16,241 bases of DNA from a virus (IMGVR_UViG_2778261537_000016:1-16241), one strand, 5' to 3'; shown: positions 1 through 16,241, numbered from the stretch's first letter. The notes: generated by a model not told the origin, from the sequence alone. Program-made: numbers and translations.

Positions 1-1017
1 CTATGTTGCCATTGTAGCTAAGGGATTAAAGCGCAGGGCCGTTTCAAGGTGGTCAGGTGCTAAGTGCGCGTAGCGCATGGTCATTTTTATGTCGTGATGC
101 CCAAGGATTTTCTGCAGAGCCAAGATGTTTCCGCCTGACATCATAAAGTGTGCTGCGAACGTATGACGCAGAACGTGTGTTAGTTGACCGCGTGGAAGCA
201 CGATAGAAGTCTTATCCATTACAGATAAAAACTGGAAGTAGCAGTCGGTGAAGAACTTGAAACCGTCCAGGGCAATGATTTCTTCATACAGCTCTTTGCT
301 AATCGGAATGCTGCGGTTCTTTTTGCCTTTTGTCCTGACAAACGTGATCCGGTATTTCGTGACCTGAGAACGGGTCAGGTTCACAGCTTCGCGCCAGCGG
401 GCACCGGTACTCAGACAGATTTTGACAACTAGGGCGAGTAGGGGGCTTTGGCGTTTGCAGTCGCACAAAAGCTCAGTGATTTGTTCATGTGTCAGCCAGG
501 CCATCTCTTTTTCTGCGATGGTGAATTTGCGCATGTTCTCCAATGGGTTTGGCGCAGTCCATTCTCCAAGTCGTGCCAGCTCGCTAAACACTCCGCTCAT
601 ATAGCTTTGCTCAAGATTGATAGTTACCGGGCTGGCTCCTTTCTTCCATTTTTCGCTAAAGTAGATTTCACCCGTCAGGCGTTTATCGCGATAGTGCGCG
701 AACATTTTAGATGTTAAATCAGTGGCGAGGGGATTTCCGAGAGCATCGACCATCAGGATCAGCTTGTCGTGAACATGCTCGCCTGCGGTCAGAGATTTTC
801 CGTGCAGCTTGTACCAGAGTTCGACGATATCTTTTAGCGTCCGGCGGTCTACCGATTCGCCCAGCCAGGGTTTCGCCTCAGTCTCATCCATCATGTGCCG
901 TTCAAACGCTAACGCTTCACCTTTACTAGCGAACTGCCTACGCACGCGGCGTCCGCTACGACCTGCGGGATAGCATTCACAAATCCATTTTCCGGTGGTG
1001 AGTTTTCGTACTGACAT
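1..1017 (-). CDS. int: Tyrosine site-specific integrase, P2/186 type
   Basis: ORF 1..1071 (-). C-terminal R...HxxR...Y tyrosine-recombinase signature (LRHTFAAHF ... MTMRYAHL). The N-terminus MSVRKLTTGKW...RRQFASKGEALAFE resembles P2-family integrases. Start chosen at the internal ATG at 1017 because AAGGAGG lies about 9 nt upstream on the minus strand. Stop codon is at 1-3, so the attachment site lies outside the window. Confidence 0.9.
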   Translation of the reverse strand: MSVRKLTTGKWICECYPAGRSGRRVRRQFASKGEALAFERHMMDETEAKPWLGESVDRRTLKDIVELWYKLHGKSLTAGEHVHDKLILMVDALGNPLATDLTSKMFAHYRDKRLTGEIYFSEKWKKGASPVTINLEQSYMSGVFSELARLGEWTAPNPLENMRKFTIAEKEMAWLTHEQITELLCDCKRQSPLLALVVKICLSTGARWREAVNLTRSQVTKYRITFVRTKGKKNRSIPISKELYEEIIALDGFKFFTDCYFQFLSVMDKTSIVLPRGQLTHVLRHTFAAHFMMSGGNILALQKILGHHDIKMTMRYAHLAPDHLETALRFNPLATMAT

Positions 1018-1047
1018 AAAAAATGCCCTCCTTTTGGAGAGCATTTT

Positions 1048-1067
1048 TACTGTATGTATAAACAGTG
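1048..1067. promoter_or_regulatory. LexA-box-like palindrome TACTGTATGTATAAACAGTG in the ASCH-int intergenic region
   Basis: CTGT (1050-1053), an 8-nt AT-rich spacer, then ACAG (1062-1065). It sits in the 79-bp gap just upstream of the int RBS (AAGGAGG, about 1025-1031) and start (1017). Confidence 0.45.
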
Positions 1068-1096
1068 TCAATATATGATGTTAAGAACCTTATACA

Positions 1097-1468
1097 TCAT
1101 AGGTATCGGTATGACTGCGGTGCTGTTATGTTGTCACCTAATGAACTTAGCAAACGTGGTTGTTCATAGACTTTCAAATCACCGATCTTAATCGCAAAGG
1201 CTTTATCCCTGCTTTGAAAGTAAGAATCAAAAAATTGTTTACTGATACCCGCATAACGGCTGGTTTTTTTCCAGACATTGCTGGGTTTATCTTCAATAAC
1301 ATCAGCAATATCGAACTCAGCAACAATCATCCCTACAGGCATTGTTGAATAAATAACCACAGATTTAACATCTGGATTTTTGAAGATTCCTTTTCTGAAC
1401 TCAAACTTTTTTGTTCCATCAAGAATCTTTTCAACAAATTCAGGTTTAATTGACAATAATACTTTCAT
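1097..1468 (-). CDS. ASCH-domain (PUA-like fold) protein
   Basis: 123-aa ORF. N-terminus MKVLLSIKPEFVEKILDGTKKFEFRK matches the characteristic ASCH start (MKxLSIKPEY/W..KI..G.K..E.R). Its start overlaps the end of the upstream gene by about 23 nt, and it ends 79 nt before int. Fold assignment is by eye. Confidence 0.6.
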   Translation of the reverse strand: MKVLLSIKPEFVEKILDGTKKFEFRKGIFKNPDVKSVVIYSTMPVGMIVAEFDIADVIEDKPSNVWKKTSRYAGISKQFFDSYFQSRDKAFAIKIGDLKVYEQPRLLSSLGDNITAPQSYRYL

Positions 1469-2531
1469 CTACAGCACCAAGTTTAATAATGTTGTCAAAT
1501 TCTCTGTCGGTCAATTTTAATACACCCCAATATGCTTGTGGATTTAAACCAACGTCTTCTATTAGTTTAGCACGAGTGATTCTTTTCGGTAAAGCAAGAT
1601 TATATGTAAAACTTATAATATAGGGGTATTTCTTTGTTTTATAAAAACTTCTCAATTCTGTTTCGGTAAATACACTATACCGAGCACAATATTTAATAAA
1701 ATCTTGCTCTGTTGGGAATGAAAAAATATCTCTAACATCTTCTACGACACATAGAGATGTAGCAACAGAACGATAATGAGCTGGACCTTTTTTATCTGAA
1801 GTTCGATAAATTACGAGAATGTCATGCATTTTTATATTTGCTACATCTTGCATGGCGCAGATGTAAATTTTTCTTATACTGTTAGCGTGAGACACGTCAG
1901 TAATAATATCTGGAGATTCAGTTATAAGTTTTGAGTCTGGGAATAGACGAGTATGAAAATCTGGATAAATAGATAGTAAGTATTTGTTTTCTTTATGTCT
2001 GTTGTTGATGAAGGGATAGTCGGCAAGAAGGTCTCCAGTGAGATCATCGGTGCTCATTTCTCTTACTAAAACATTTTCAATACCATTTTCAGATTCTTTT
2101 TTTCCGTATTTTATAAACCCATAATTTAAAAAAAGTTTAATCAGGTAATCATGCTTATCAAAAACTGTTACATATATATCGTTCACTTTTTCACTTAATG
2201 CGTGGTCAAATATCTTTTTCAAAAAACGTTGACCTCGCAATGTACCTTTCGTATTAAACTTAAAGGTCCCTATTTTGAGATGTTTTAAATCAGCCAATGA
2301 AGGGTTAACATCAGTAACCTCGCCATCTTCAATTTTTAGATACATGAATCCATCAATTGAATCATCCTCATTGTAGAGCACGTATGCTTTTTCTCTTAGA
2401 TCTTTTGCTTTTTTGTGAAACCATTCTACAAAACCAGCTTTATAGTCAGCTTTCAATGAGTCAAAAAAAGCATCGTCAAAGTTTACTTCATTAAAACTAA
2501 TGTGCTTTAAATTTTCCATTTTAATCTCCAT
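1446..2531 (-). CDS. GNAT-like (acyltransferase-fold) N-terminal domain fused to an uncharacterised C-terminal domain, possibly PUA/ASCH-like
   Basis: 361-aa ORF. Residues about 50-160 show a GNAT-like pattern (...GTLRGQRFLKKIFDHAL... IYVTVFDKHDYLIKLFLNYGFIKYG) with a degenerate motif A. The C-terminal 200 aa are unassigned; their beta-rich pattern loosely resembles the adjacent ASCH protein. A GGAG RBS precedes the second ATG, so the true start is probably 2519 (MENLK...). Visibly AT-rich. Confidence 0.5.
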   Translation of the reverse strand: MEIKMENLKHISFNEVNFDDAFFDSLKADYKAGFVEWFHKKAKDLREKAYVLYNEDDSIDGFMYLKIEDGEVTDVNPSLADLKHLKIGTFKFNTKGTLRGQRFLKKIFDHALSEKVNDIYVTVFDKHDYLIKLFLNYGFIKYGKKESENGIENVLVREMSTDDLTGDLLADYPFINNRHKENKYLLSIYPDFHTRLFPDSKLITESPDIITDVSHANSIRKIYICAMQDVANIKMHDILVIYRTSDKKGPAHYRSVATSLCVVEDVRDIFSFPTEQDFIKYCARYSVFTETELRSFYKTKKYPYIISFTYNLALPKRITRAKLIEDVGLNPQAYWGVLKLTDREFDNIIKLGAVDESIIVN

Positions 2532-2545
2532 GTCTCATTGAAAAG

Positions 2546-3625
2546 TCATTTTCTAAATTTAATGAAATTTGCGATTATATATAATGCTATTAACGATAGT
2601 GAACCGTAAATAAATAGGTTTTTATCTAAGCTTTCTGTTGGTACAAATTTCATAACAAATGTTATTGCTGCGCCGTAGAAAATGTATGCAAATATTTTGC
2701 TTAGTTTAGATTTCGTGTTTTTAAATTTTACGACGACAGAAAAATCATTAAGTCTCGAATTTATATCATTTGATATTTTCCAATGATATATCATTGGATC
2801 ATGAGACCCGAAAGATACGCCTTTGCTAAAATATTTTGTCCATGTCTCAGACTCTAAAATTCTTGAACCTTTATAATTTGAACCGGATGCGGAACAGTCA
2901 TCAACCATATCGCGGATTATAAAAATATGGCATTTCAAAGGGGTACAAGCGGCGCTAGCAAGAGTTGTGGCTATTTCGGAGGGCAGGTTTCTTTGCTCAT
3001 TAACCCTAAAATCGATGATATCAGACCGCTCAATACTACTCTTAAGGAAGAGATCTTTGGGGTAAAATGTTTTCACTAAAAGACCGATATCTTCTTTATT
3101 AATTTGGACACGGAATCTTAAATAGTGATTACAAGCATCTTCGGAAGAGAGACAATCCTTGAGTTTAAAGGCTAGTAAGGTGCCATTGTGGATTTTTGTT
3201 ATCTTGACTCTATGATCAAGCTCGCCGCCGCTAAATGATAACTTAGTATTAACAACTAAGTCTCCTTTATTGGCGAGCACTAATTTTAAATGTCTACCAT
3301 CTACTGTTTTAGTGTCAATAAGGTATTCATTGAAAACTGCAGTTACGAGATCTCTGCTTGATTCAAGGTTTTCACTAAGATCAGAAAAAAAATTATTTTC
3401 TTTTTCGAATGGTAGGAATATACATATTGCCCCATGCTTAGCAATGGTTTCATCTTCAGGCTTTTTGAATGTGATGCCAAAATCTAAATAGCCAAATTTA
3501 TGAGCGCTTATGTTCCAAAAATTAATATGCAACTCTTCAATGAAATTCTTATGTTCAGAGTTGTAGGTCGAGCCTGAACTACTATGATAATCCCTACACC
3601 CCCAGACCGCAAAACTTCGTGACAT
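2546..3625 (-). CDS. Membrane-anchored hypothetical protein: large N-terminal soluble domain plus C-terminal 2-TM hairpin
   Basis: ORF 2546..3685 (-). Start set at the ATG at 3625 (MSRSFAVWG...), which has AAGGAA about 7 nt upstream and does not overlap the repressor gene. The C-terminus has two hydrophobic helices (IFAYIFYGAAITFVMKF and LFIYGSLSLIALYIIANFI) and ends KFRK. No recognisable catalytic motif. Visibly AT-rich. Confidence 0.55.
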   Translation of the reverse strand: MSRSFAVWGCRDYHSSSGSTYNSEHKNFIEELHINFWNISAHKFGYLDFGITFKKPEDETIAKHGAICIFLPFEKENNFFSDLSENLESSRDLVTAVFNEYLIDTKTVDGRHLKLVLANKGDLVVNTKLSFSGGELDHRVKITKIHNGTLLAFKLKDCLSSEDACNHYLRFRVQINKEDIGLLVKTFYPKDLFLKSSIERSDIIDFRVNEQRNLPSEIATTLASAACTPLKCHIFIIRDMVDDCSASGSNYKGSRILESETWTKYFSKGVSFGSHDPMIYHWKISNDINSRLNDFSVVVKFKNTKSKLSKIFAYIFYGAAITFVMKFVPTESLDKNLFIYGSLSLIALYIIANFIKFRK

Positions 3626-3651
3626 ATCGATTTCCTTTGTCAGTAACGGTT

Positions 3652-4263
3652 TTAATTCAAATTGACCAGTAAGTAAAAATGGCATCGTGCAATTGGGTTT
3701 AGTTCACTGATAAAGCACTCAAATGAATGGCATGGATTGGGTGCTCCAACCTTGACTCTTCCTACAGGTATTCTCGTAAGTTCTCTAATACTCACTTTCC
3801 CTTCTATCTCTACCACCCACTTACCATCGGTCACTTCGTGAAAATGTTGATCAGCTAAATAGAGCTGATCTGAATCCATGATTACGATAGGTTTTCGCAA
3901 AGAATCTGGCACCAACGCTTTGTCGAGTAGGTAAAAATTTGAATCTAATAATTTCCCATCTTTGATTTTTTTTCGAGGTACGGAAAACAAATCAGCAAGA
4001 ACATTTTCATTTGCTGATTGGATACCTAAAGATTTTTGGGGTGGCTTAGGACTCCCAGTTCCAAATGAAAGCCACTCAACTGGGACGCCGGTCTCAATTG
4101 AGCACTTTATTATCCAGTCAGCAGGGAACACGTCTCTCATCCATCTGGTGCTCATCGTGCTTGTTGAAATCCCAAGCCGCTCACAAAGAGCCTTACGAGT
4201 ACTTACTCCGTAGGCCTCAAGCATACGAAGAATAGCCTCACGGCCACCATTGTTAAAATCCAT
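3652..4263 (-). CDS. CI-like immunity repressor (N-terminal HTH)
   Basis: 203 aa. N-terminal HTH-like segment (STRKALCERLGISTSTMSTRWMRD). AAGGAG sits 7 nt upstream of the ATG at 4263. It is divergent from an Apl/Cro-like gene across a promoter/operator region, the same layout as the 186 cI position next to int. No S24 Ser-Lys peptidase motif was seen. Confidence 0.7.
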   Translation of the reverse strand: MDFNNGGREAILRMLEAYGVSTRKALCERLGISTSTMSTRWMRDVFPADWIIKCSIETGVPVEWLSFGTGSPKPPQKSLGIQSANENVLADLFSVPRKKIKDGKLLDSNFYLLDKALVPDSLRKPIVIMDSDQLYLADQHFHEVTDGKWVVEIEGKVSIRELTRIPVGRVKVGAPNPCHSFECFISELNPIARCHFYLLVNLN

Positions 4264-4288
4264 TAATGCTCCTTTGGAACCTTACATG

Positions 4289-4316
4289 TTGACAAACTCC
4301 AAATGAGACGTAATAT
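4289..4316 (+). promoter_or_regulatory. Sigma70-type early (pR-like) promoter, TTGACA-N16-TAATAT
   Basis: TTGACA at 4289-4294 and TAATAT at 4311-4316. It is oriented toward the Apl/Cro-like gene that starts at 4397. Confidence 0.55.
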
Positions 4317-4338
4317 TGCTACTGAAGCTCATTTGGAG
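4297..4338. promoter_or_regulatory. Candidate operator: perfect 11-bp inverted repeat CTCCAAATGAG-N20-CTCATTTGGAG
   Basis: Arms at 4297-4307 and 4328-4338 are exact reverse complements. They bracket the -10 element and the predicted transcription start of the early promoter. Confidence 0.55.
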
Positions 4339-4396
4339 TCTTCACTGTTGAACACCGCTAGACACGGTTTACTTACTTAAAAAGGAATCTTGCATC

Positions 4397-4618
4397 ATGA
4401 CTCCTCACATTTCAATCACGTTGACTGTTCCTTCCGTATCAATTGAAAAATATAGCGAACTTACTGGGCTATCAATTGACACAATCAATGACATGCTAGC
4501 GGATGGCCGCTTGATACGGCACCGCTTACGCAAAGATAAAAAGCGCGAAAAAGTTATGATCAACATTGCGGCTATGACTGTCGATGCGCTCTCAGATTGC
4601 AACGTGTCCATCAATTAG
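4397..4618 (+). CDS. Apl/Cro-like small HTH DNA-binding protein
   Basis: 73-aa ORF, first gene of the rightward operon and divergent from the repressor. HTH-like segment YSELTGLSIDTINDMLADGRL. GGAA lies upstream of the ATG. Confidence 0.6.
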   Translation: MTPHISITLTVPSVSIEKYSELTGLSIDTINDMLADGRLIRHRLRKDKKREKVMINIAAMTVDALSDCNVSIN

Positions 4619-4650
4619 TTCGATTTTGAGACCGACTGAGGGCAATGACT

Positions 4651-5154
4651 ATGTTTGATTATCAAACCTCCAAACATGCGCACTTTGATGCGGCTTGCCG
4701 AGCATTTGCGATTGAGCACAATCTGGAAGATGTGGCCGCTGCTGTTGGCATGAGGCCACAGATCCTGCGCAACAAATTGAATCCAGCACAGCCACACCGT
4801 TTAACCTGTGACGAGCTTTTAGCTATTACGGATTACACCGAAGATGCGCGTTTACTGGATGGAATGCTGGGGCAGATTAACTGCCTTCCATCCGTACCAG
4901 TGAACAATGCCACAGAAGGCAACATGCAGTTGTGCGCACTGAGTGCCACAGCCTGTGTGGGCGCAATTGCTGGGGAAGCCGTATCCACTGGTCATATGAC
5001 CGCCGCCCGCCGTACACAAATTCTGGATCGCGCTCGCGATGCAATCCGTAGCTTATCCGTGCTGGCTTATACCGTTGAAAGCCGTATCCAGTCTGCGCCT
5101 GTTCTGGCCGCAGCGGTGGATTTGGTGACGGCTAACGCCACCGGCTTGATGTGA
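4651..5154 (+). CDS. cII: CII-like lysogeny-establishment regulator (phage 186 CII family)
   Basis: ORF 4645..5154. The sequence MFDYQTSKHAHFDAACRAFA...LRNKLNPAQPH closely resembles my recollection of the 186 CII N-terminus, and the length (167-169 aa) matches. Start is at 4645 or 4651; GAGGG lies just upstream. Confidence 0.7.
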   Translation: MFDYQTSKHAHFDAACRAFAIEHNLEDVAAAVGMRPQILRNKLNPAQPHRLTCDELLAITDYTEDARLLDGMLGQINCLPSVPVNNATEGNMQLCALSATACVGAIAGEAVSTGHMTAARRTQILDRARDAIRSLSVLAYTVESRIQSAPVLAAAVDLVTANATGLM

Positions 5155-9676: not shown

Positions 9677-9696
9677 TACTGTATGAATATACAGTT
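9677..9696. promoter_or_regulatory. LexA (SOS) box, TACTGTATGAATATACAGTT
   Basis: CTGT-N8-ACAG with an AT-rich spacer, a near-perfect match to the LexA consensus TACTGTATATATATACAGTA. It lies about 20-40 nt upstream of the small ORF at 9714 and its AGGAGG RBS (9708-9713). Confidence 0.75.
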
Positions 9697-9713: not shown

Positions 9714-9932
9714 ATGCTTGTGCAGGATTTGTTTATGGAAACTATCGCATTGCAGCGGATTGCGTTGTTTACCAGGTTGATCGCCAAAAGTAATTGCACT
9801 GGCTGTGAAAAGGACATTGCACTTGCCTGGCTAAGCGAGCTGACTTCAGATCTGGAAAGTAAACTTGATGAATATGAAAGTAAAAACCCCCGGGAAGGGG
9901 GCTTATCAGGCGGCGGGAGTCGCTTTCAGTAG
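9714..9932 (+). CDS. SOS-controlled small protein at the tum position (candidate Tum-like antirepressor)
   Basis: 72-aa ORF just downstream of the LexA box and a strong AGGAGG. That RBS abuts the ATG at 9714, so the GTG at 9720 may be the real start. In 186 the LexA-repressed tum gene sits downstream of A in the same place. No sequence homology to Tum was verified, and the ORF runs through the convergent terminator and overlaps the ogr-like 3' end. Confidence 0.4.
   Translation: MLVQDLFMETIALQRIALFTRLIAKSNCTGCEKDIALAWLSELTSDLESKLDEYESKNPREGGLSGGGSRFQ
9882..9902 (-). terminator. Rho-independent terminator for the ogr-like gene
   Basis: On the minus strand a GC hairpin (GCCCCC-TTCCC-GGGGG) is followed by TTTTT, immediately after the ogr-like stop at 9906-9908. 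Confidence 0.6.
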
Positions 9933-10225: not shown

Positions 10226-11287
10226 TCATGCCGCACCCTTATCCGTTGATTCTGTGTAACTTAAATCAAAGTTAAGGTGCAGCCTTTCCGGTATTTCGGG
10301 ATCGTTGTTCACCGCAGTCATAAACCGGCGCTGAATGGGTGCTATTTCGCTTTTCTTGTAAATCCTTTCCGCCTTTTCAACATCCCCCAGGCCGGCAGTG
10401 TTCTGCGGGACAATTCCGGCCAGCCCTGCGGGAAAGCGGTGTGCGTTGAGAATGTCCTGTGCGCTGATGTTTTTGATGTTGGCAAATTCATCTTTTGCAG
10501 AGATATCCCCCATTTCAATAAACTTGATCGCATCCCCATCCCCGCCTGGAATGTTCACCAGAATGGTGGAGAAGTTGCCGATACCTTTGCTGTCCCGCAG
10601 CTGCTGTTCAATCTCTTCTTCCATTTCATCCGTCATGCTGGGATCGCGCGTGTAGAGAATGCCGCCAGTATGGGCGCCGTTGTGGTAGTAACGGCGGCGA
10701 AAAATCACGGCTTCACTGTTAAGCAATGCCGAGTGTACGCCGCCGATATAGTCGGGCAGCCCGTAAATATGCTGCTGCGGGTCGTACATCTTGATAAAAA
10801 TGATATCTTCTTGCGGCCATACCTGCGGTTCACCGTCCTGCAATACCACATAATCGCCGGGCTGGTCTGCGGCGTTGTCCCTGACTTTACGGCGGCGAAT
10901 ATACAGGCCGGGTAAAGGTTCCAGGGCAATCACATCTCCCCATCCGTTGCGGATTTTGCCAATCGCAATATCCCCGAAGGTTGTATAGTCAAACGCTGCG
11001 GCTTCCAACTGGTCGTAAGTCAGGCCACCGCCCAGATAATCAGACACAATCATATTTTTCCGGGCGTGGATAATGCCGCCATGCTGACCGTTCAGATTGA
11101 TAAGCTGTGCCAGTGCCAGCCGGTCAATCGGCTGGGTAAAGTGATCGGCGGCATTGTCGTACCAGATGTCGCGGTAATCCGTGCCGGTGGTCAGGACGGG
11201 TTCCGGTTTGCCGAATGTGATGATGCTCATTTTTTTGGATTTATCGCCGCGCGGGTTGCGCTTAACGAAGCGGTTTTTTTTACTCAT
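10226..11287 (-). CDS. Portal protein (P2 gpQ family)
   Basis: 353 aa. Collinear with P2 Q as I recall it: MSKK..., ITFGKPEPVL (cf. FTFGEPVPVL), LNSEAVIFRRRYYHNGAHTG (cf. LNESATLFRRKYYENGAHAG), LRDSKGIGNF, KDEFANIKNISAQDILNAHRFP, GLGDVEKA. Its start overlaps the terminase stop by 4 nt. Confidence 0.9.
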   Translation of the reverse strand: MSKKNRFVKRNPRGDKSKKMSIITFGKPEPVLTTGTDYRDIWYDNAADHFTQPIDRLALAQLINLNGQHGGIIHARKNMIVSDYLGGGLTYDQLEAAAFDYTTFGDIAIGKIRNGWGDVIALEPLPGLYIRRRKVRDNAADQPGDYVVLQDGEPQVWPQEDIIFIKMYDPQQHIYGLPDYIGGVHSALLNSEAVIFRRRYYHNGAHTGGILYTRDPSMTDEMEEEIEQQLRDSKGIGNFSTILVNIPGGDGDAIKFIEMGDISAKDEFANIKNISAQDILNAHRFPAGLAGIVPQNTAGLGDVEKAERIYKKSEIAPIQRRFMTAVNNDPEIPERLHLNFDLSYTESTDKGAA

Positions 11288-12441
11288 GCAGCCTCTTTCC
11301 TTACACCCCAGCGGGATTTCGGTTTATTTTCGTAGTTGAGTGGTTCGTTATGCAGGGCGTGGGTAATTGCCCAGAACGCCTCTGCGTGGCCAGTGTCCTG
11401 GCTGCGGTCAGCGACAAATGTCATGGCGTTACCACTTTGCGTGGTGGTGCGGCGTACAGCCATAAAGCTGGCCGGGATCTCTTTCAGGTTCTTGTCCCAT
11501 TCAATACGCTGACTTTCCACCACGTCCGCCGCTTTCAGTACCAGCTGATTTTTCGTGTTCATGTCGTAACGAATGGCGACGGCCACGCGCATGGCAAAAT
11601 GCTGGATGTTGTCAAAAACACCCTGGCCAATACCGGTAACGTCCACTCCCAGATAGGTGAAGTTGTATTTTTTAAACAGGAGTTCGATCTGCCTGGCCTG
11701 ATAGCGGAAGTTCATGCCCTTCCAGTTAATGACCTTCAGAACGCGGAATTTCTCTGCGGCATACATCGGCGGGGCAATAATCACAAAACACGACAAATCG
11801 CCGCTACGTGCCGGGTCAAAGCCTCCCCATACTGGCCTGTCACCGAATGGCCGCGCAGCGTCCGGGTTGTGATCCTGCCAGGTGTCCACCTCCACGCCGC
11901 AGGCTTCCAGGTCTGAAAAGCTGAATACGGAATCCTTGCTGTCCACGAAGACGCACATATAGAGCATGTTGAAGGTGGCCGTGTTGTAGCGGTTGCGCAG
12001 CTTCTCGATGTTGGCCAGGTTGAAGCCACCTGCAATGGCATCCTCCATCGTGATGACATAGCGCCACTGCCCATCCGGGCAAAGCCGTCCGCCGTCGCGC
12101 ATGTCATCAAAAGACGGGAACTGGGCGGCCGCGCGTTTTTTGCTGCCCTGTTTCCATTCCTCACCCGTCCAGAACGGGTAAGCCTGGTGCGTTTTGGCCG
12201 ATGGTGTTGAAAAGTAGGTGGTGCGCCATTTGTCATGGGTGGCCATTGCGCTGGCCACTTCGTTAAGCCTGGCGAAGTTAGGCACCCAGAAATATTCGTC
12301 ACAGTACAGGTGGCCACTGTAGGACTGGGCTGTGTTCTTGTTGGTTGAGAGAAAACGCAGTTCAGCGCCGTTGCTGAGGCGGATCGGGTTGCCGGTCAGC
12401 GTTATGCCAAAATACTGTTCTGCAATGTTGACGATGTAAGA
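11284..12441 (-). pseudogene. Terminase large subunit (P2 gpP family), 5'-truncated; N-terminal region including the expected Walker A is absent
   Basis: ORF 11284..12285 plus an in-frame open extension upstream. The translation (...NGAELRFLSTNKNTAQSYSGHLYCDEYFWVPNFARLNEVASAMATHDKWRTTYFSTPS...) matches the central and C-terminal part of P2 P, including a Walker-B-like YCDEYFW. The frame hits a stop at about 12472-12474 with no ATG and no Walker A, and AT-rich non-coding DNA follows. Confidence 0.75.
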
Positions 12442-12517
12442 TAGGATGTACCGTTTTTTAAAAACAACTAGTTATACACTTTGTGGGAGCCTATTGGGAA
12501 CCTGAAGTTTTGCTCTT

Positions 12518-12537
12518 TCTATTCATATCTATTCATA
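12518..12537. repeat. Perfect tandem direct repeat TCTATTCATA x2
   Basis: Read directly at 12518-12527 and 12528-12537, in the AT-rich spacer between the truncated terminase and the next module. Confidence 0.6.
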
Positions 12538-12562
12538 AAGCACCATTTGCTGCCTTATCTGA

Positions 12563-12589
12563 TTGACCAAAAACAACCGCGGTTATAGA
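12563..12589 (+). promoter_or_regulatory. Candidate sigma70 promoter (TTGACC ... TATAGA) for the 12645 operon
   Basis: TTGACC at about 12563-12568 and a TATAGA-like -10 about 15-17 bp downstream. GAGG RBS lies 5 nt before the ATG at 12645. Weak call by eye. Confidence 0.3.
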
Positions 12590-12644
12590 CTTTGCTCCAA
12601 ATAGCTAAGGCTATTGCTTAGTAAGTAAAACAGTTGAGGTTGCC

Positions 12645-13184
12645 ATGAATCCGTTTAACGCCATTACTTTTGCTGCATTGTGCGGGCCTCTGGCTTGTCC
12701 TGCTGCTATGGCGCAGGAGTTCATCATCCAGCCAGCCCCTGTGATTGCTAAACCTTTTGAGTACTCTCCTTCTGTTGAGGAATTCTCACGCAGAATGGAA
12801 GAGGGTAAGGAGATCTTGCAAAAGTTAACAATTGCAGCAGATGACTACTATATCTGTTTGATTGATCTTAATAGCCAAGATGCTCGCGAGTTTGTTTCCA
12901 AAAACGGGACAGATACGACAGAGGCATGCGAAATGTTCCTGCGTGCTTTTGAAGAAGAAGTGAAGCGTACAATTGAATCGCCTCTGCCTGAATTTATCAG
13001 GTCAGAACTGAAGGTTTACTGGCGTCATATTGCTAAAGCTCGCTCATCTGTCACTCGCCTTAACAATTACATAAAGAGCATATTTAAAGAAACTGTTACG
13101 TTTAGCGGGCGCGCGGATCTTGCTGGAATTGCAGCACTAGCTAGTCACACATCAAATAAGCTAAAATCGATGCAATTTCACTAA
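12645..13184 (+). CDS. Hypothetical protein with signal-peptide-like N-terminus (179 aa); upstream partner of the YafO-like gene
   Basis: N-terminus MNPFNAITFAALCGPLACPAAMA/QE is hydrophobic with an AxA-type cleavage site but lacks a positively charged n-region. The rest is charged and helical with no recognisable domain. GAGG RBS. Stop is 16 nt before the next gene. Confidence 0.5.
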   Translation: MNPFNAITFAALCGPLACPAAMAQEFIIQPAPVIAKPFEYSPSVEEFSRRMEEGKEILQKLTIAADDYYICLIDLNSQDAREFVSKNGTDTTEACEMFLRAFEEEVKRTIESPLPEFIRSELKVYWRHIAKARSSVTRLNNYIKSIFKETVTFSGRADLAGIAALASHTSNKLKSMQFH

Positions 13185-13200
13185 CCGATAGCGGACGACC

Positions 13201-13635
13201 ATGCATCTAGAAGTCTCTATTAATCCAGAAACTAGAGCTGAATTTTTTGATGAAGTTTTTCTCAAATTCCCGGAGCTAGAGTCTTCTATCATTGATGATT
13301 TCAAGAGATACAAAGCAACCGGTGAGCTTCCGCATTATTTCGGTAGGGACGTTGCGTATACTCAGCCCTATGGTGCTTTTCGGGCTGGGTTGATGCATAT
13401 CCATCTTTGTCTACCGCCAAACAAGTTTCCCGAGAAACTTCCACAACCGGATAGGGTCTGCAAGAAAGGTGATCCTGATAATGATGCTTGTCTTGTGTAT
13501 GTCCAAGGTGAGCTTTATGAGAATAAATATTCACTCATTGCTATTATGTATCCCGATGCACATGAAAAAGCAAGAAAACATGATGTGATGAGCTATCTGG
13601 CGCGAATTGCCCAGAATTATAAAGATGAAAACTAA
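13201..13635 (+). CDS. YafO-family type II toxin-like protein (ribosome-dependent mRNA interferase family)
   Basis: 144 aa. Collinear with E. coli YafO as I recall it: YK..G.LP..FGRD..Y, HIHL, D.A(C/H)LVY.QG, LIAI..P..H..AR. The gene is followed immediately by a strong terminator. Confidence 0.6.
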   Translation: MHLEVSINPETRAEFFDEVFLKFPELESSIIDDFKRYKATGELPHYFGRDVAYTQPYGAFRAGLMHIHLCLPPNKFPEKLPQPDRVCKKGDPDNDACLVYVQGELYENKYSLIAIMYPDAHEKARKHDVMSYLARIAQNYKDEN

Positions 13636-13655
13636 CCCGCCGAAGCGGGTTTTTT
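13636..13655 (+). terminator. Rho-independent terminator (CCCGC-CGAA-GCGGG followed by TTTTTT)
   Basis: Perfect 5-bp GC stem with a tetraloop and a T6 run, directly after the stop at 13635. It lies between convergent genes and may also act on the minus strand. Confidence 0.8.
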
Positions 13656-13661
13656 GTGAGA

Positions 13662-13934
13662 TTAGTTATTTATTTTCCTATTTGTTCTTACCCTCTCCCA
13701 TTCAATTCTGCCTTCTTCACGCCGTTTATCTATATATTCAGCAAGATCCTGAATGTTGATGCAGCGCTTTGCTTTCTGTGATGTACCAACACGATAAGTC
13801 GGGATCGGCAATTGGCATGCATTTGCTTTCGCTTCTGCTGTGTTAGGGCTCATACCGAAATACTTTTGGCATACAGCTGACAGCTCAATGTTTGGGGTAT
13901 TGAATTCAGCCATCAGTAAAAACAAGGTGTTCAT
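13662..13934 (-). CDS. PrtN-family (pyocin activator-like) transcriptional regulator
   Basis: ORF 13662..13961 (GTG per the ORF tool); the ATG at 13934 has GGAG upstream. The sequence FGMSPNTAEAKANACQLPIPTYRVGTSQKAKRCINIQDLAEYID matches the conserved PrtN core as I recall it. Confidence 0.65.
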   Translation of the reverse strand: MNTLFLLMAEFNTPNIELSAVCQKYFGMSPNTAEAKANACQLPIPTYRVGTSQKAKRCINIQDLAEYIDKRREEGRIEWERVRTNRKINN

Positions 13935-13970
13935 AATTTTCTCCATCAAAACCGGCTGCACCCGGGAAAA

Positions 13971-14543
13971 TCATAATTCTGTGCTGGTGGCAGGAATTAG
14001 TTTCTGCCAGATAGCGGAAACATATTTTGCCTGATGACGGGCATCAGCCAGGGCGTTGTGCCGTTCGCCATCGAAAGGCATGTCCATTTTTGGGTCGAAT
14101 CCGATGGAACGCCCAAGCGTAACGATCGTGCGTACATCGTGGTCATTCCAGTACGCCCACGGGCAGATTTGTCCTGCTCGCTCGTAAGCTCCACGTAAAA
14201 TTACGTTGTCGAAGGTGGCCCCGTTACCCCAGACTTTTAAATATTTTGTATTGTCTGCATGCTGATTAATGAAATGGCTCAGTTCAGAGAGTGCATCGCT
14301 GATCGACAAAGTATCATCAATACAGATTGCAGCTCGTGCTTCAGAGCTCTGTTTCAACCACCACAGGATGGTATCGCCGTCAGGTGTAGCTCCTTGCTTC
14401 ATAGCACTGTCCAGGCTAACAACCGTATAGAATTCTTGTCCGATGTCTCCGGTTTCTGGAGTGAAGAACACCGCGCCAATGGAAACGATCGGTGCATCCT
14501 TATTTTTCCCCATCGTCTCAAGGTCGATCATTAAGTTGTTCAT
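13971..14543 (-). CDS. DnaQ-like 3'-5' exonuclease (DEDDh family)
   Basis: Exo I motif IDLETMG, Exo II WGNGATFD, Exo III HNALADA. The ATG at 14543 has a GAGGTGA RBS; the ORF tool's 14546 is a GTG. Its start overlaps the upstream stop by 1 nt. Confidence 0.8.
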   Translation of the reverse strand: MNNLMIDLETMGKNKDAPIVSIGAVFFTPETGDIGQEFYTVVSLDSAMKQGATPDGDTILWWLKQSSEARAAICIDDTLSISDALSELSHFINQHADNTKYLKVWGNGATFDNVILRGAYERAGQICPWAYWNDHDVRTIVTLGRSIGFDPKMDMPFDGERHNALADARHQAKYVSAIWQKLIPATSTEL

Positions 14544-15352
14544 CACTTCACCTCTTGTGATGGTTTTGCTGCAAAATACTCGATACCTTTATCCCAGATA
14601 GATTTTATGGTCGACCACGTGACTGGCACTTTAATTTCAATACGTCCGCTCCCGTCACAGGTATCGCAATCATCATCGCCAAAGCATTCCAGGCAGCTTA
14701 TAAACGTAGTTTCTGAAAATTCACCGGATAGCGCCCCCTTAGCGCCGTTCTCGGCTGTTAGTCTCTTCGGCACCATAACCCAACCATCCGGAGTTACCGG
14801 AGAGTTGCCAGACAGTGCGTTCTGCAATCGTTCCAGCTTAACGTATTCCTGAACCCTGTTTCCGTCGCACGCCTGAAGCCATTGCACAGCCTTTTGCGCA
14901 TCAGTGTGAAAGGCACAAGTGCGACCGTCATCAAATTGCATTTCGTAGAGGTCAGCAACCTGTTTAAACTGCGTTTGTGGCAACTTGTAAGCCTGGCTTG
15001 CAGGTACGGCACCATAGAGCATGGCAGCGCGGCAGGCGTTCCAGCCTTCATCAAAACCGACTATGCCATTATTTAAAGACGGACGAGCATCTGGCACCAC
15101 CGGCACTGGCTTGGCTATATATAGCGGCTGAACATACCAGCCCTTTGATAACCAACTGTCAGCAATGTTTTTACTCCTGGTTATTGCCGGAATACCTAAG
15201 CCATTGTCTGAATGCAGCCATGCCACCGGATCCTCTTCCAGCGATGCCAGAGCAATTTCATAAGCACGGCGCTCAACATTGTCTCGCACGTCCATGCTGC
15301 TGATTCGTTCTTTGATTTCTTTAATCAGTTCTTTATCGGTAAATGTGGTCAT
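14543..15352 (-). CDS. Hypothetical prophage early protein (269 aa) with a C-terminal Cys-rich motif
   Basis: Operon member with coupled start and stop. C-terminal CLECFGDDDCDTCDGSGRIE resembles a small zinc-ribbon (CxxC...CxxC). No other motif recognised. Confidence 0.55.
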   Translation of the reverse strand: MTTFTDKELIKEIKERISSMDVRDNVERRAYEIALASLEEDPVAWLHSDNGLGIPAITRSKNIADSWLSKGWYVQPLYIAKPVPVVPDARPSLNNGIVGFDEGWNACRAAMLYGAVPASQAYKLPQTQFKQVADLYEMQFDDGRTCAFHTDAQKAVQWLQACDGNRVQEYVKLERLQNALSGNSPVTPDGWVMVPKRLTAENGAKGALSGEFSETTFISCLECFGDDDCDTCDGSGRIEIKVPVTWSTIKSIWDKGIEYFAAKPSQEVK

Positions 15353-15714
15353 TATGCTCCAGCCTCCGGTGCTTTTGGCATTACTGCCCAGTGAGTGATG
15401 TTGACGTTTTCAAGGTCCCCGACCTGAAATGTCCACTGCCATTCTCCGGTTTCTTTTTGCCCCCATGTATACCAGAGAGAACGCCAGCCAATCAGCCAGC
15501 CTTCTCCATTAGCATCAAATAACAGAACACTTTCATTCGCTGGCGGCAGTTCAGCTGACACTGGTATTACTTTGTTTTCCAGTGCTGCACATTTAGCTTC
15601 AAGCGCATTAAATTTACGCACCAGGTATTCAGCATCCGTTTCATTCACTTTCAGATCTCGCGGTACACATTTCCCGCGAAGAAATCCTTCCATTTCGAAA
15701 ACATTCATGCGCAT
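15352..15714 (-). CDS. Hypothetical prophage early protein (120 aa)
   Basis: ORF with GGAG upstream of the ATG at 15714. Trp-rich C-terminal half (GWLIGWRSLWYTWGQKETGEWQW). It overlaps the upstream gene by 10 nt. Confidence 0.5.
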   Translation of the reverse strand: MRMNVFEMEGFLRGKCVPRDLKVNETDAEYLVRKFNALEAKCAALENKVIPVSAELPPANESVLLFDANGEGWLIGWRSLWYTWGQKETGEWQWTFQVGDLENVNITHWAVMPKAPEAGA

Positions 15715-16241
15715 TTGCGTAACTCCGATAATTCGTTAAAGCGTTCCATAAACATCCCGTAGGCATGGCCTGGAGCCAGTGGAATCACGTTGAACATCTC
15801 TGTTGCCGGGATACCTTCCAGTACAGGCCAGAAAGAGCCATCATCAAGCCCGAGATCGCGGCGTTCGGTTGCCAGCATGATGAGATCGGCATATTTCACG
15901 GGCGTACTCATAACCGGTGGTAACCCGTATTTCTCACGGATTACGGCGTCTATTTTTTCTTCCATCCGTTTATAGTCAGGAAGAAGGCGTTTCAGTGGTG
16001 CGGGAATGTCCTGGCAATACGCTTCTGTTGCATCATGCATTAACGCTTCAAAAGCAAATTCCTGCGGCACCAGCTGGCTGCAAAGAACCGCATGTTGGGC
16101 GACGCTGTAGAAGTGCGAAAGATGACCGGCAAAGCGACAGATATTTGAAAGGGAAACCGCGATATCGTTAATATCGATGTCGTCTTTATTTATCCTGTCA
16201 TAATAAAAATGCTTCCCGGAAAAAGTTTTAATAAATGACAT
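15705..16241 (-). CDS. HD-domain phosphohydrolase, YfdR-like 5'-deoxynucleotidase
   Basis: 178-aa ORF whose ATG is at the window edge (16239-16241). HD-domain signature (H...HD...D): SVAQHAVLCSQL, ALMHDATEAYCQDIP, ADLIMLATERRDLG. Length and N-terminus match my recollection of E. coli prophage YfdR. The upstream promoter is outside the window. Confidence 0.7.
   Translation of the reverse strand: MSFIKTFSGKHFYYDRINKDDIDINDIAVSLSNICRFAGHLSHFYSVAQHAVLCSQLVPQEFAFEALMHDATEAYCQDIPAPLKRLLPDYKRMEEKIDAVIREKYGLPPVMSTPVKYADLIMLATERRDLGLDDGSFWPVLEGIPATEMFNVIPLAPGHAYGMFMERFNELSELRKCA

Follow-up and report, generated by a model that had tools for sequence, protein, structure and literature searches.

Repressor-linked cargo and predicted separate control of the integrase gene in the switch region of a 186-like prophage

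The viral sequence IMGVR_UViG_2778261537_000016:1-16241 (16,241 nucleotides (nt); this whole stretch is called the window, and all coordinates refer to it) contains the switch region of a 186-like (Peduoviridae) prophage, in which a horizontally acquired, AT-rich three-gene insert occupies the site of the cI/int overlap of phage 186. The cassette and int genes are all encoded on the minus strand. The first leftward gene, cI (3652..4263), encodes an immunity repressor of 203 amino acids (aa) with the Pfam domains Phage_CI_repr (4.1e-25) and Phage_CI_C (1.5e-29), 29% identical to 186 CI (E 3e-25). It is followed by the first cargo gene, X (2546..3625), encoding 359 aa from an ATG with an AAGGA Shine-Dalgarno sequence and having two C-terminal transmembrane (TM) helices; by A (PDC-M11A, 1446..2531), a fusion of GNAT and ASCH/PUA-like domains (PADLOC PDLC04419, 6.9e-137); by B (PDC-M11B, 1097..1468), a stand-alone ASCH protein of 123 aa (PADLOC PDLC04425, 1.4e-48; Pfam ASCH, 1.1e-6); and by int (1..1017), a tyrosine integrase of 338 aa (Pfam Int_N, 3.8e-32; Phage_integrase, 6.4e-21) with 55% identity to 186 Int. 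The int stop codon lies at 1-3, so that the window end coincides with the end of the gene, and the int ATG at 1017 and its Shine-Dalgarno sequence are kept in all relatives. The spacers measure 26 nt from cI to X, 14 nt from X to A and 79 nt from B to int, with a 23-nt overlap of A and B; the cI stop and the int ATG are thus 2634 nt apart, and int does not directly follow or overlap cI here. The G+C content of the cassette is 27-35% across 1200-3400 (about 31%), versus about 50% in both flanks. An earlier note on this DNA had described the five minus-strand genes (repressor, 2-TM protein, GNAT-like, ASCH and int) as co-oriented with short spacers; gene calls, Pfam and PADLOC matches and measured spacers agree with this, and Pfam, PADLOC, fold and TM-helix evidence match the gene list. 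Its further proposal, a single unpunctuated transcript from 4263 to 1, is not supported in view of what precedes int, namely a conserved, strong terminator-like hairpin that buries the Shine-Dalgarno sequence and a predicted promoter of its own with a LexA box. The transcription unit is more likely cI-X-A-B, with int under separate control.

The gap between B and int contains a terminator-like hairpin (1018..1048, minus strand) whose 3' arm is the int Shine-Dalgarno sequence (GGAGG). Minus-strand positions 1048-1019 read AAAAAUGCUCUCC-AAAA-GGAGGGCAUUUUU; the G+C-rich core of 7 bp (GCUCUCC, 1042-1036, paired with GGAGGGC, 1031-1025) encloses a 4-nt loop, AAAA, and A/U pairs lengthen the stem to 1048/1019, giving 13 bp. 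A run of six U (1023-1018) leads directly into the int AUG at 1017. With a G+C-rich stem, a short loop and a 3' U-tract, the element has the sequence characteristics of an intrinsic terminator. Its free energy is -17.5 kcal/mol (z = -6.2, 0 of 200 shuffles being as stable), and in a custom scan it was the top minus-strand terminator candidate in 1-4700. A consensus terminator scan had missed it, probably because the pairing of the A-run with the U-run uses the T tail. The hairpin is symmetric (-11.3 kcal/mol on the plus strand), but it was rejected as a plus-strand terminator, no plus-strand gene ending there. Rfam recognized no known RNA family anywhere in the window. Relatives were collected with an IMG/VR scan using the window integrase, which gave 80 loci with Int at least 92% identical; together with three annotated records (Int 91-92% identical) and the window they form a set of 84 loci. 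Of 71 distinct intervals, 66 have an equivalent hairpin next to the int ATG, in two sequence variants of the same geometry, GCUCUCC/GGAGGGC and AGCCCUCA/UGAGGGCU. Overall, 97% of the hairpin pair cells are kept, and one pair is altered on both sides in 16 sequences.

Upstream of the hairpin lies a predicted int-proximal promoter (1043..1071, minus strand; 10/12 in the promoter scan), composed of a -35 hexamer TTGACA (1071-1066) and a -10 element TAAAAA(T) (1049-1043), which the scan scored as AAAAAT at 1048-1043. Its spacer is formed by a putative LexA SOS box, CACTGTTTATACATACAGTA (1067-1048, minus strand), with CTGT-N8-ACAG at 1050-1065 and, by inspection, three mismatches to TACTG(TA)5CAGTA. 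On the plus strand the box reads TACTGTATGTATAAACAGTG, close to the 186 p95 LexA site TACTGTATGTTTATACAGTA, and CTGT-N8-ACAG was found twice in the window versus 0.18 expected. Two CII-type half-sites (1071..1097, minus strand), ATGTATA (1097-1091) and CATATAT (1077-1071), are separated by 13 nt; the proximal half adjoins the -35 hexamer, and both the spacing and the position relative to the -35 (proximal half at about -41 to -35) are as at 186 pE, where CII acts. CII binding at the int half-sites is accordingly a prediction by resemblance. Comparison of 62 distinct upstream sequences of relatives revealed the same succession of elements. The half-sites are conserved around 12-13 variable bases (32 different spacers), with the exact form ATGTWTG-N12/13-CAWACAT in 15 and a relaxed form in 37, and they persist in lineages with 52-56% integrase identity. 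The -35, TTGAC(A/C), adjoins the proximal half-site; in the LexA box the CTG and ACAGT columns are invariant, 46 sequences being exact and 61 of 62 keeping CTGK-N8-MCAG; the -10 is TAAAAA or TTAAAT; the hairpin begins 0-2 nt later and is followed by 5-7 U and the ATG. DNA similarity to phages with other cargo reaches 60-70 nt 5' of the int ATG. Because the module is present with unrelated cargos, the 79-nt gap and its hairpin belong, at the level of sequence, to the int block and not to the cassette. In one locus with an identical cassette (L006 5134-8950), two tandem group II introns on the opposite strand (Rfam RF02005, 186.6 bits each; reverse-transcriptase open reading frames (ORFs) of 495 aa) interrupt the int promoter exactly where its -35 (TTGAC) would be followed by the LexA box, some 24 nt away from the hairpin.

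The remainder of the minus strand looks different. The consensus scan found no minus-strand terminator in 1017-4330, and the hairpin-plus-T scan gave no convincing site at the cI-X, X-A or A-B junction; its other candidates (with tails at 4071, 3989, 1726 and elsewhere) were discarded, being in coding sequence and irregular, AT-rich or weak-tailed. Folding of the cI-X and X-A junctions gave energies no better than those of shuffled sequence, and both are unstructured. The earlier statement that no terminator hairpin separates the genes thus survives for cI-X, X-A and A-B, where both scans are in its favour, as is shuffle folding for the first two junctions, and fails in the B-int gap. Within the cargo of the 71 intervals, the sole clear intergenic terminator lies between a convergent gene pair, and the other intergenic hits are an AT-rich inverted repeat at the boundary of the int module in four loci. 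These data also bear on the idea that the cassette is an autonomous moron, transcribed from one or more promoters of its own independently of cI, with the hairpin as the terminator of the moron. The cassette is AT-rich foreign DNA, several minus-strand hexamer pairs resemble promoters, such as 2603-2574 before A (10/12), and the classic P2 conversion genes old, tin and fun are independent units. However, the start of X comes only 26 nt after the cI stop, minus-strand promoter-like sites are no commoner than in shuffled sequence (14 vs 14.7), and the site before A was rejected as an internal promoter, being unconserved in six relatives. The hairpin, moreover, accompanies unrelated cargos, and where Dickeya and Serratia carry this cassette it is closed by another terminator. 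We regard an autonomous moron as improbable.

The promoters that would drive the cI-led unit can be located by comparison with 186. Between cI and the first plus-strand gene of the switch region, an Apl/Cox-like gene (4397-4618), a pR-equivalent early lytic promoter (TTGACA-16-TAATAT, 4289..4316, plus strand; 10/12 in the promoter scan) aligns with 186 pR. It is faced by a predicted pL-equivalent maintenance promoter (4387..4415, minus strand) with -35 TTGAAA (4415-4410), a 17-nt spacer and -10 CAAGAT (4392-4387). The latter scores under the consensus promoter-scan threshold; it aligns with the annotated 186 pL (TTGCGA-17-CATGAT), its -35 TTGAAA is common to E. coli MB20 and phage 813R9, and its activity is postulated on that footing. 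The face-to-face pR/pL pair is therefore recognizable in the window at the sequence level. A perfect 12-nt inverted repeat, ACTCCAAATGAG / CTCATTTGGAGT (4296-4307 / 4328-4339), brackets the pR -10 and is a candidate CI operator pair, unlike 186 in sequence. Further downstream on the plus strand are cII (4645-5154; Pfam Phage_CP76, 1e-46), a Dam methylase gene and gpA. The CII site of the predicted pE, ATGTTTG-N13-CAAACAT (4651..4677), overlaps the cII start codon. This single exact match in the window (0 expected) equals the annotated 186 CII protein_bind feature (L004 4436-4463) in sequence and spacing, and its columns are invariant across a four-phage alignment; the minus-strand hexamer CAAAAT at about 4629-4624 is the predicted pE -10. 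Minus-strand 4383-4405, where pL transcription is predicted to start, contains a weak hairpin with UUUU behind it, AGGAGUCAUGAUGCAAGAUUCCU (-7.6 kcal/mol for the hairpin), and pE transcripts must cross this element. The 186 record annotates a 1-nt overlap of cI and int, face-to-face pR and pL, a CII-activated pE with the CII site inside the cII start and, past int/orf69, a terminator predicted for the lysogenic operon. This lysogenic operon (pL/pE-cI-int-orf69-terminator) and the window have in common the opposed pR/pL, the CI Pfam domains, Apl/Cox, CII, the pE half-sites ATGTTTG-N13-CAAACAT and the placement of cI before int. In contrast, 186 int has no promoter, LexA box or hairpin in front of it, whereas in the window 2.6 kb of cargo and the 80-nt module intervene between cI and int.

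The gene order cII-apl | cI-[variable]-int was found in 84 of 84 loci. The cI-int interval spans 393-2964 nt, except in the locus with two group II introns (6452 nt), and an empty slot was never found in this int clade. The cargo ORFs of the 84 loci form 36 protein clusters. With ORFs called on both strands, the cargo is fully co-oriented with cI and int in 39 of 41 size/orientation patterns (rough binomial p 4e-10, the patterns not being fully independent). PADLOC matches among the cargo include PD-Lambda-1 (7e-117), Old (8e-231) and PDC-S20, a KAP NTPase (2e-80), as well as PDC-M18A/B, PDC-S31 and an OLD/AriA-like ATPase. The smallest cargo encodes a cysteine-rich protein of 63 aa whose N-terminus resembles a signal peptide (MLGKVFFVVLSCSLLL...); it is present in 11 loci, among them L016, L033 and L061, with an interval of about 393 nt. 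Cargo between cI and int is an already known kind of arrangement: a cI-int defence hotspot has been described in P2-related, K139-like prophages of Vibrio (Rousset et al. 2022, PMC9122126), and P2-like prophages have an integrase-primase hotspot that contains 8% of P2 systems (PMC13586616). The cargo of the window-type slot includes PD-Lambda-1, Old, PDC-S20, PDC-M18, PDC-S31 and PDC-M11, and this slot differs from those hotspots in belonging to enterobacterial 186-type phages. The portions of the two papers that deal with these hotspots give location and content; transcriptional wiring, a co-orientation rule and an int-proximal LexA/CII/hairpin module are absent from those portions.

Co-expression of the cassette with cI is well supported on this comparative evidence, since cargo in this slot is co-oriented, free of intergenic terminators and placed behind a kept pL/pE, and the cassette is very probably lysogen-expressed cargo of a cI-led operon at a defence hotspot. 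The earlier expectation that the cargo would be expressed in the lysogen together with the repressor is to this extent upheld, on the basis of 186 anatomy and the 84-locus comparison, and its extension to int is not. An alternative is that the cassette is silent in the lysogen, through H-NS or through Rho polarity on AT-rich DNA, and is expressed under particular conditions. Xenogeneic silencing of AT-rich DNA is well established in Enterobacterales, and the low G+C content across 1200-3400 suits it. Against this, the tight translational coupling of the genes (26 nt, 14 nt and a 23-nt overlap) limits the access of Rho, and the fact that about 40 cargo patterns are strictly co-oriented with cI argues that read-through from cI matters. 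Prophage accessory loci are, moreover, often highly expressed in lysogeny (PMC7067206). A silent cassette is in our judgement a poor prospect, no better than the autonomous moron.

Extension of the comparison to more distant integrases supported the link between cargo and the int-proximal module. A scan of species-representative genomes gave 80 further loci (Int 50-98% identical), which with a Dickeya (L085) and a Serratia (L087) locus make 82; the conservation described here is seen across about 160 loci in all. A LexA box was searched for within 130 nt upstream of int: it was found in none of the 31 loci of 186 type (cI stop at most 60 nt from the int ATG), in 13 of the 37 loci with cargo and in 10 of the 14 in which cI was not detected by the queries used. 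The box thus occurs in 23 of the 82 loci, in many species, and never where cI abuts int (cargo loci versus cI-abutting loci, Fisher p = 1.2e-4). The module recurs at 52-56% Int identity in Rahnella, Buttiauxella, Acerihabitans, Winslowiella and others, and is also kept in the Dickeya and Serratia lineages. In these distant modules CAAACAT adjoins the -35, the LexA box occupies the spacer and a hairpin pairing with the Shine-Dalgarno sequence directly follows the -10; the U-run is absent in some of them. In addition, the half-sites of L104, L123, L124, L085 (8530-8552) and L087 (8543-8570) are directly preceded by a canonical intrinsic terminator (AGCCTGCAAAAGCAGG+T7 or GGTGGCCTCGGCCACC, for instance), and the anti-Shine-Dalgarno hairpin after the -10 is kept there as well. 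The Dickeya and Serratia loci carry X-A-B, ended by a terminator unlike that of the window. Judged from sequence, the recurrent order is cargo, stop, LexA-box int promoter, int.

Taken together, these features are probably best explained by a lysogenic operon consisting of cI-X-A-B and by an insulated int, separately controlled by a module with SOS and CII-type inputs and a hairpin; every promoter, terminator, LexA and CII activity in this proposal is a prediction drawn from anatomy, motifs, folding energy and conservation. The cassette, having no conserved promoter or terminator of its own, would form the promoter-distal portion of the cI transcript, which pL would drive in the lysogen and CII-dependent pE during establishment, and its products would appear whenever the repressor does. 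This unit would stop, or be strongly attenuated, just before int. There, an 80-nt module that appears to travel with int whatever the cargo combines CII-type half-sites, a predicted sigma-70 promoter, the LexA box and the 13-bp hairpin with its six U. RNA arriving from cI and the cargo would fold the hairpin and either terminate at the U-run or read through with the Shine-Dalgarno sequence buried. RNA from the int promoter, with a predicted +1 at about 1037-1035, 6-8 nt past the -10, could not form the hairpin, because its start lies within the 5' arm; the leader of 25 nt that starts at 1036 has a folding energy of only -3.8 kcal/mol and leaves the Shine-Dalgarno sequence free. LexA would hold this promoter off in the lysogen, and the SOS response would free it when Int and Apl are needed for excision, while during establishment it may be switched on by CII, much as PI is by lambda CII. 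Int would consequently be made upon SOS induction, and perhaps under CII, and not constitutively with the cargo.

The nearest mechanistic analogue of the hairpin, by likeness of design, is the fold-back inhibition of IS10/Tn10, which, as reportedly described by Davis, Simons and Kleckner in 1985, shields the transposase from outside transcription. In IS10, read-through RNA pairs an upstream segment with the ribosome-binding site (RBS), and RNA from the element's own promoter starts within that segment and escapes. In the same manner, the 5' arm of the window-type hairpin starts 0-2 nt past the -10 in every lineage examined; the window hairpin differs in being also terminator-like (six U) and in protecting, as predicted, a phage integrase. 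SOS control of recombinase genes is known elsewhere, for instance for integron intI. In lambda, CII activates int expression (PMC7708051). The window resembles the PI arrangement in having a separate int promoter with a predicted site for an establishment factor, in the geometry of the 186 pE CII site; however, 186-type CII is unrelated to lambda CII, the window promoter has a near-consensus -35 and a LexA box, and CII binding to it is a prediction. It is established that LexA governs the induction of 186 through p95-tum (PMC7708051). There too a CTGT-N8-ACAG box overlaps a promoter, and the second such box of the window lies at the tum position, but in 186 the LexA target is the antirepressor and not int, and the window ORF behind the second box is not a Tum homologue. 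The literature searched contained no report of int being under LexA control in P2/186-like phages, and the conserved, predicted LexA-box/CII-site int promoter with a fold-back terminator is apparently undescribed.

Several points weigh against this proposal. The AT-rich cargo (31% G+C) is a plausible H-NS target that could be silenced or terminated early by Rho. Covariation of the hairpin is limited to one pair, a limitation explained by the double role of its 3' arm as Shine-Dalgarno sequence. The U-run could be a mere spacer between Shine-Dalgarno sequence and AUG, since distant lineages keep the anti-Shine-Dalgarno hairpin without it; intrinsic terminators leak, so that some cI-to-int RNA is likely; and the half-sites of the window are degenerate (ATGTATA/CATATAT versus ATGTTTG/CAAACAT). 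The int block of the 84 close loci is of recent common descent, part of its conservation being inherited rather than selected, and PDC-M11 is a candidate defence system only. Finally, 24 of the 37 cargo loci of other int lineages have no promoter/terminator module before int; a simple read-through design therefore exists too, and read-through to int is also viable. This last point, together with the distant hairpins that have no U-run, favours a single uninterrupted lysogenic transcript, pL-cI-cassette-int, as in 186, with the hairpin as the context of the int RBS or as a leaky pause. The annotated lysogenic unit of 186 includes cI and int, an int-lacZ fusion has served as the leftward reporter in that phage (PMC7708051), and the five genes of the window are co-oriented with short spacers. 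Nevertheless, the hairpin with its six U is the strongest terminator-like site on the strand and is conserved in nearly all of the close intervals, relatives have canonical terminators at the same boundary, a conserved LexA-box promoter would be pointless if pL served int, and the Shine-Dalgarno sequence would be buried even on read-through RNA. A single transcript through int consequently appears unlikely, though less so than either a moron or a silent cassette.

Repressor-linked expression is the regime expected of prophage defence genes, and with it X and PDC-M11A/B should be "on" in every lysogen. Beyond this cassette, the comparison yields a rule, that cargo of the cI-int slot is nearly always co-oriented with cI and terminator-free, and a device, the conserved LexA-box/CII-site promoter with its fold-back hairpin, that apparently shields int from the cargo transcript. 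A more tentative suggestion, to which we would give somewhat less than an even chance, is that the 80-nt insulator-promoter, with its two inputs (establishment and SOS), uncouples int from the immunity operon, that this wiring permits arbitrary co-oriented defence cargo without deregulating integration and excision, and that it evolved together with the cI-int hotspot. If confirmed, the rule and the device would add a new regulatory layout to the well-studied 186/P2 switch and would explain how a hotspot can sit within an essential operon; the module would be a natural insulator part, and int with the module a marker for lysogen-expressed cargo in enterobacterial genomes.

Regarding the cassette proteins, the AlphaFold model of A (predicted local distance difference test, pLDDT, 87.7) contains a GNAT domain in its N-terminal part (about residues 1-160; Foldseek matches to PaiA, NatD and Naa50) and an ASCH/PUA-like domain in its C-terminal part (about residues 180-361; matches to ZmASCH and the McrB N-terminal domain). 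Residues R99, G100 and R102 of A are invariant. Sequence hits of A to PaiA are weak; its homologues number 1843, those listed being from Gammaproteobacteria. B resembles the Zymomonas protein ZmASCH (5GUQ/5GUS, E 1e-9). ASCH proteins have been reported as a single-stranded RNA ribonuclease (PMC5615036), as an N4-acetylcytidine (ac4C) amidohydrolase (PMC6972931) and as tRNA ac4C erasers (bioRxiv 10.64898/2026.02.27.708502). X combines a beta-rich soluble domain with its two C-terminal TM helices; a fold search with X gave no informative match, and a cargo protein of Klebsiella 4LV2017 considered as an X homologue was rejected, no homology being found. A and B match the PDC-M11A and PDC-M11B models over their full length and are adjacent, overlapping genes, in agreement with the two-gene PADLOC definition of PDC-M11, from which the window, the Dickeya and Serratia prophages, which have the X-A-B triad at the same slot, and one non-prophage contig differ in having X in front. 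On that contig (L086 6001-8961), X (29% identity), an A-like protein of 499 aa and an ASCH protein lie beside kinase, DUF4007 and PIN_8 genes; in other prophages (L017 5183-7221; L075 6718-8922) X is swapped for a 202-aa multi-TM protein or a 260-aa DUF3644-like protein. Because X precedes A and B elsewhere too, or another protein takes its place, PDC-M11 may be a three-part system with an exchangeable first component. Experimental validation of PDC-M11 was not found in the literature searched, where one paper names it as a candidate; a defence function of the cassette is presumed from these matches. As a low-confidence guess, X-A-B could represent a pair for RNA-directed acetylation (GNAT) and de-acetylation or RNA binding (ASCH) with a membrane partner, in an abortive-infection-type defence.

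The second LexA box of the window, TACTGTATGAATATACAGTT (9679-9694), lies after gpA, at the position of 186 p95-tum, and is followed by an AGGAGG Shine-Dalgarno sequence and a 72-aa ORF (9714-9932; phrog_698). This ORF was rejected as Tum, with no detectable similarity, and may encode a non-homologous SOS-induced antirepressor. As to the integrity of the element, a terminase-like ORF at 11284-12285 has no N-terminal part, and the G+C content falls from 0.60 to 0.42 (window about 12200-16241). The 186-like element seems to be truncated within the terminase gene and joined to a lambdoid-type prophage; because of this apparent truncation it may be a defective relic that still matters only for its immunity and its cargo. 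The sequence beyond about 12440 matches E. coli chromosomes at 99.9-100% identity and has genes for a phrog_8416 protein, a YafO toxin, an excisionase, a 3'-5' exonuclease and a yfdR-like 5'-deoxynucleotidase.

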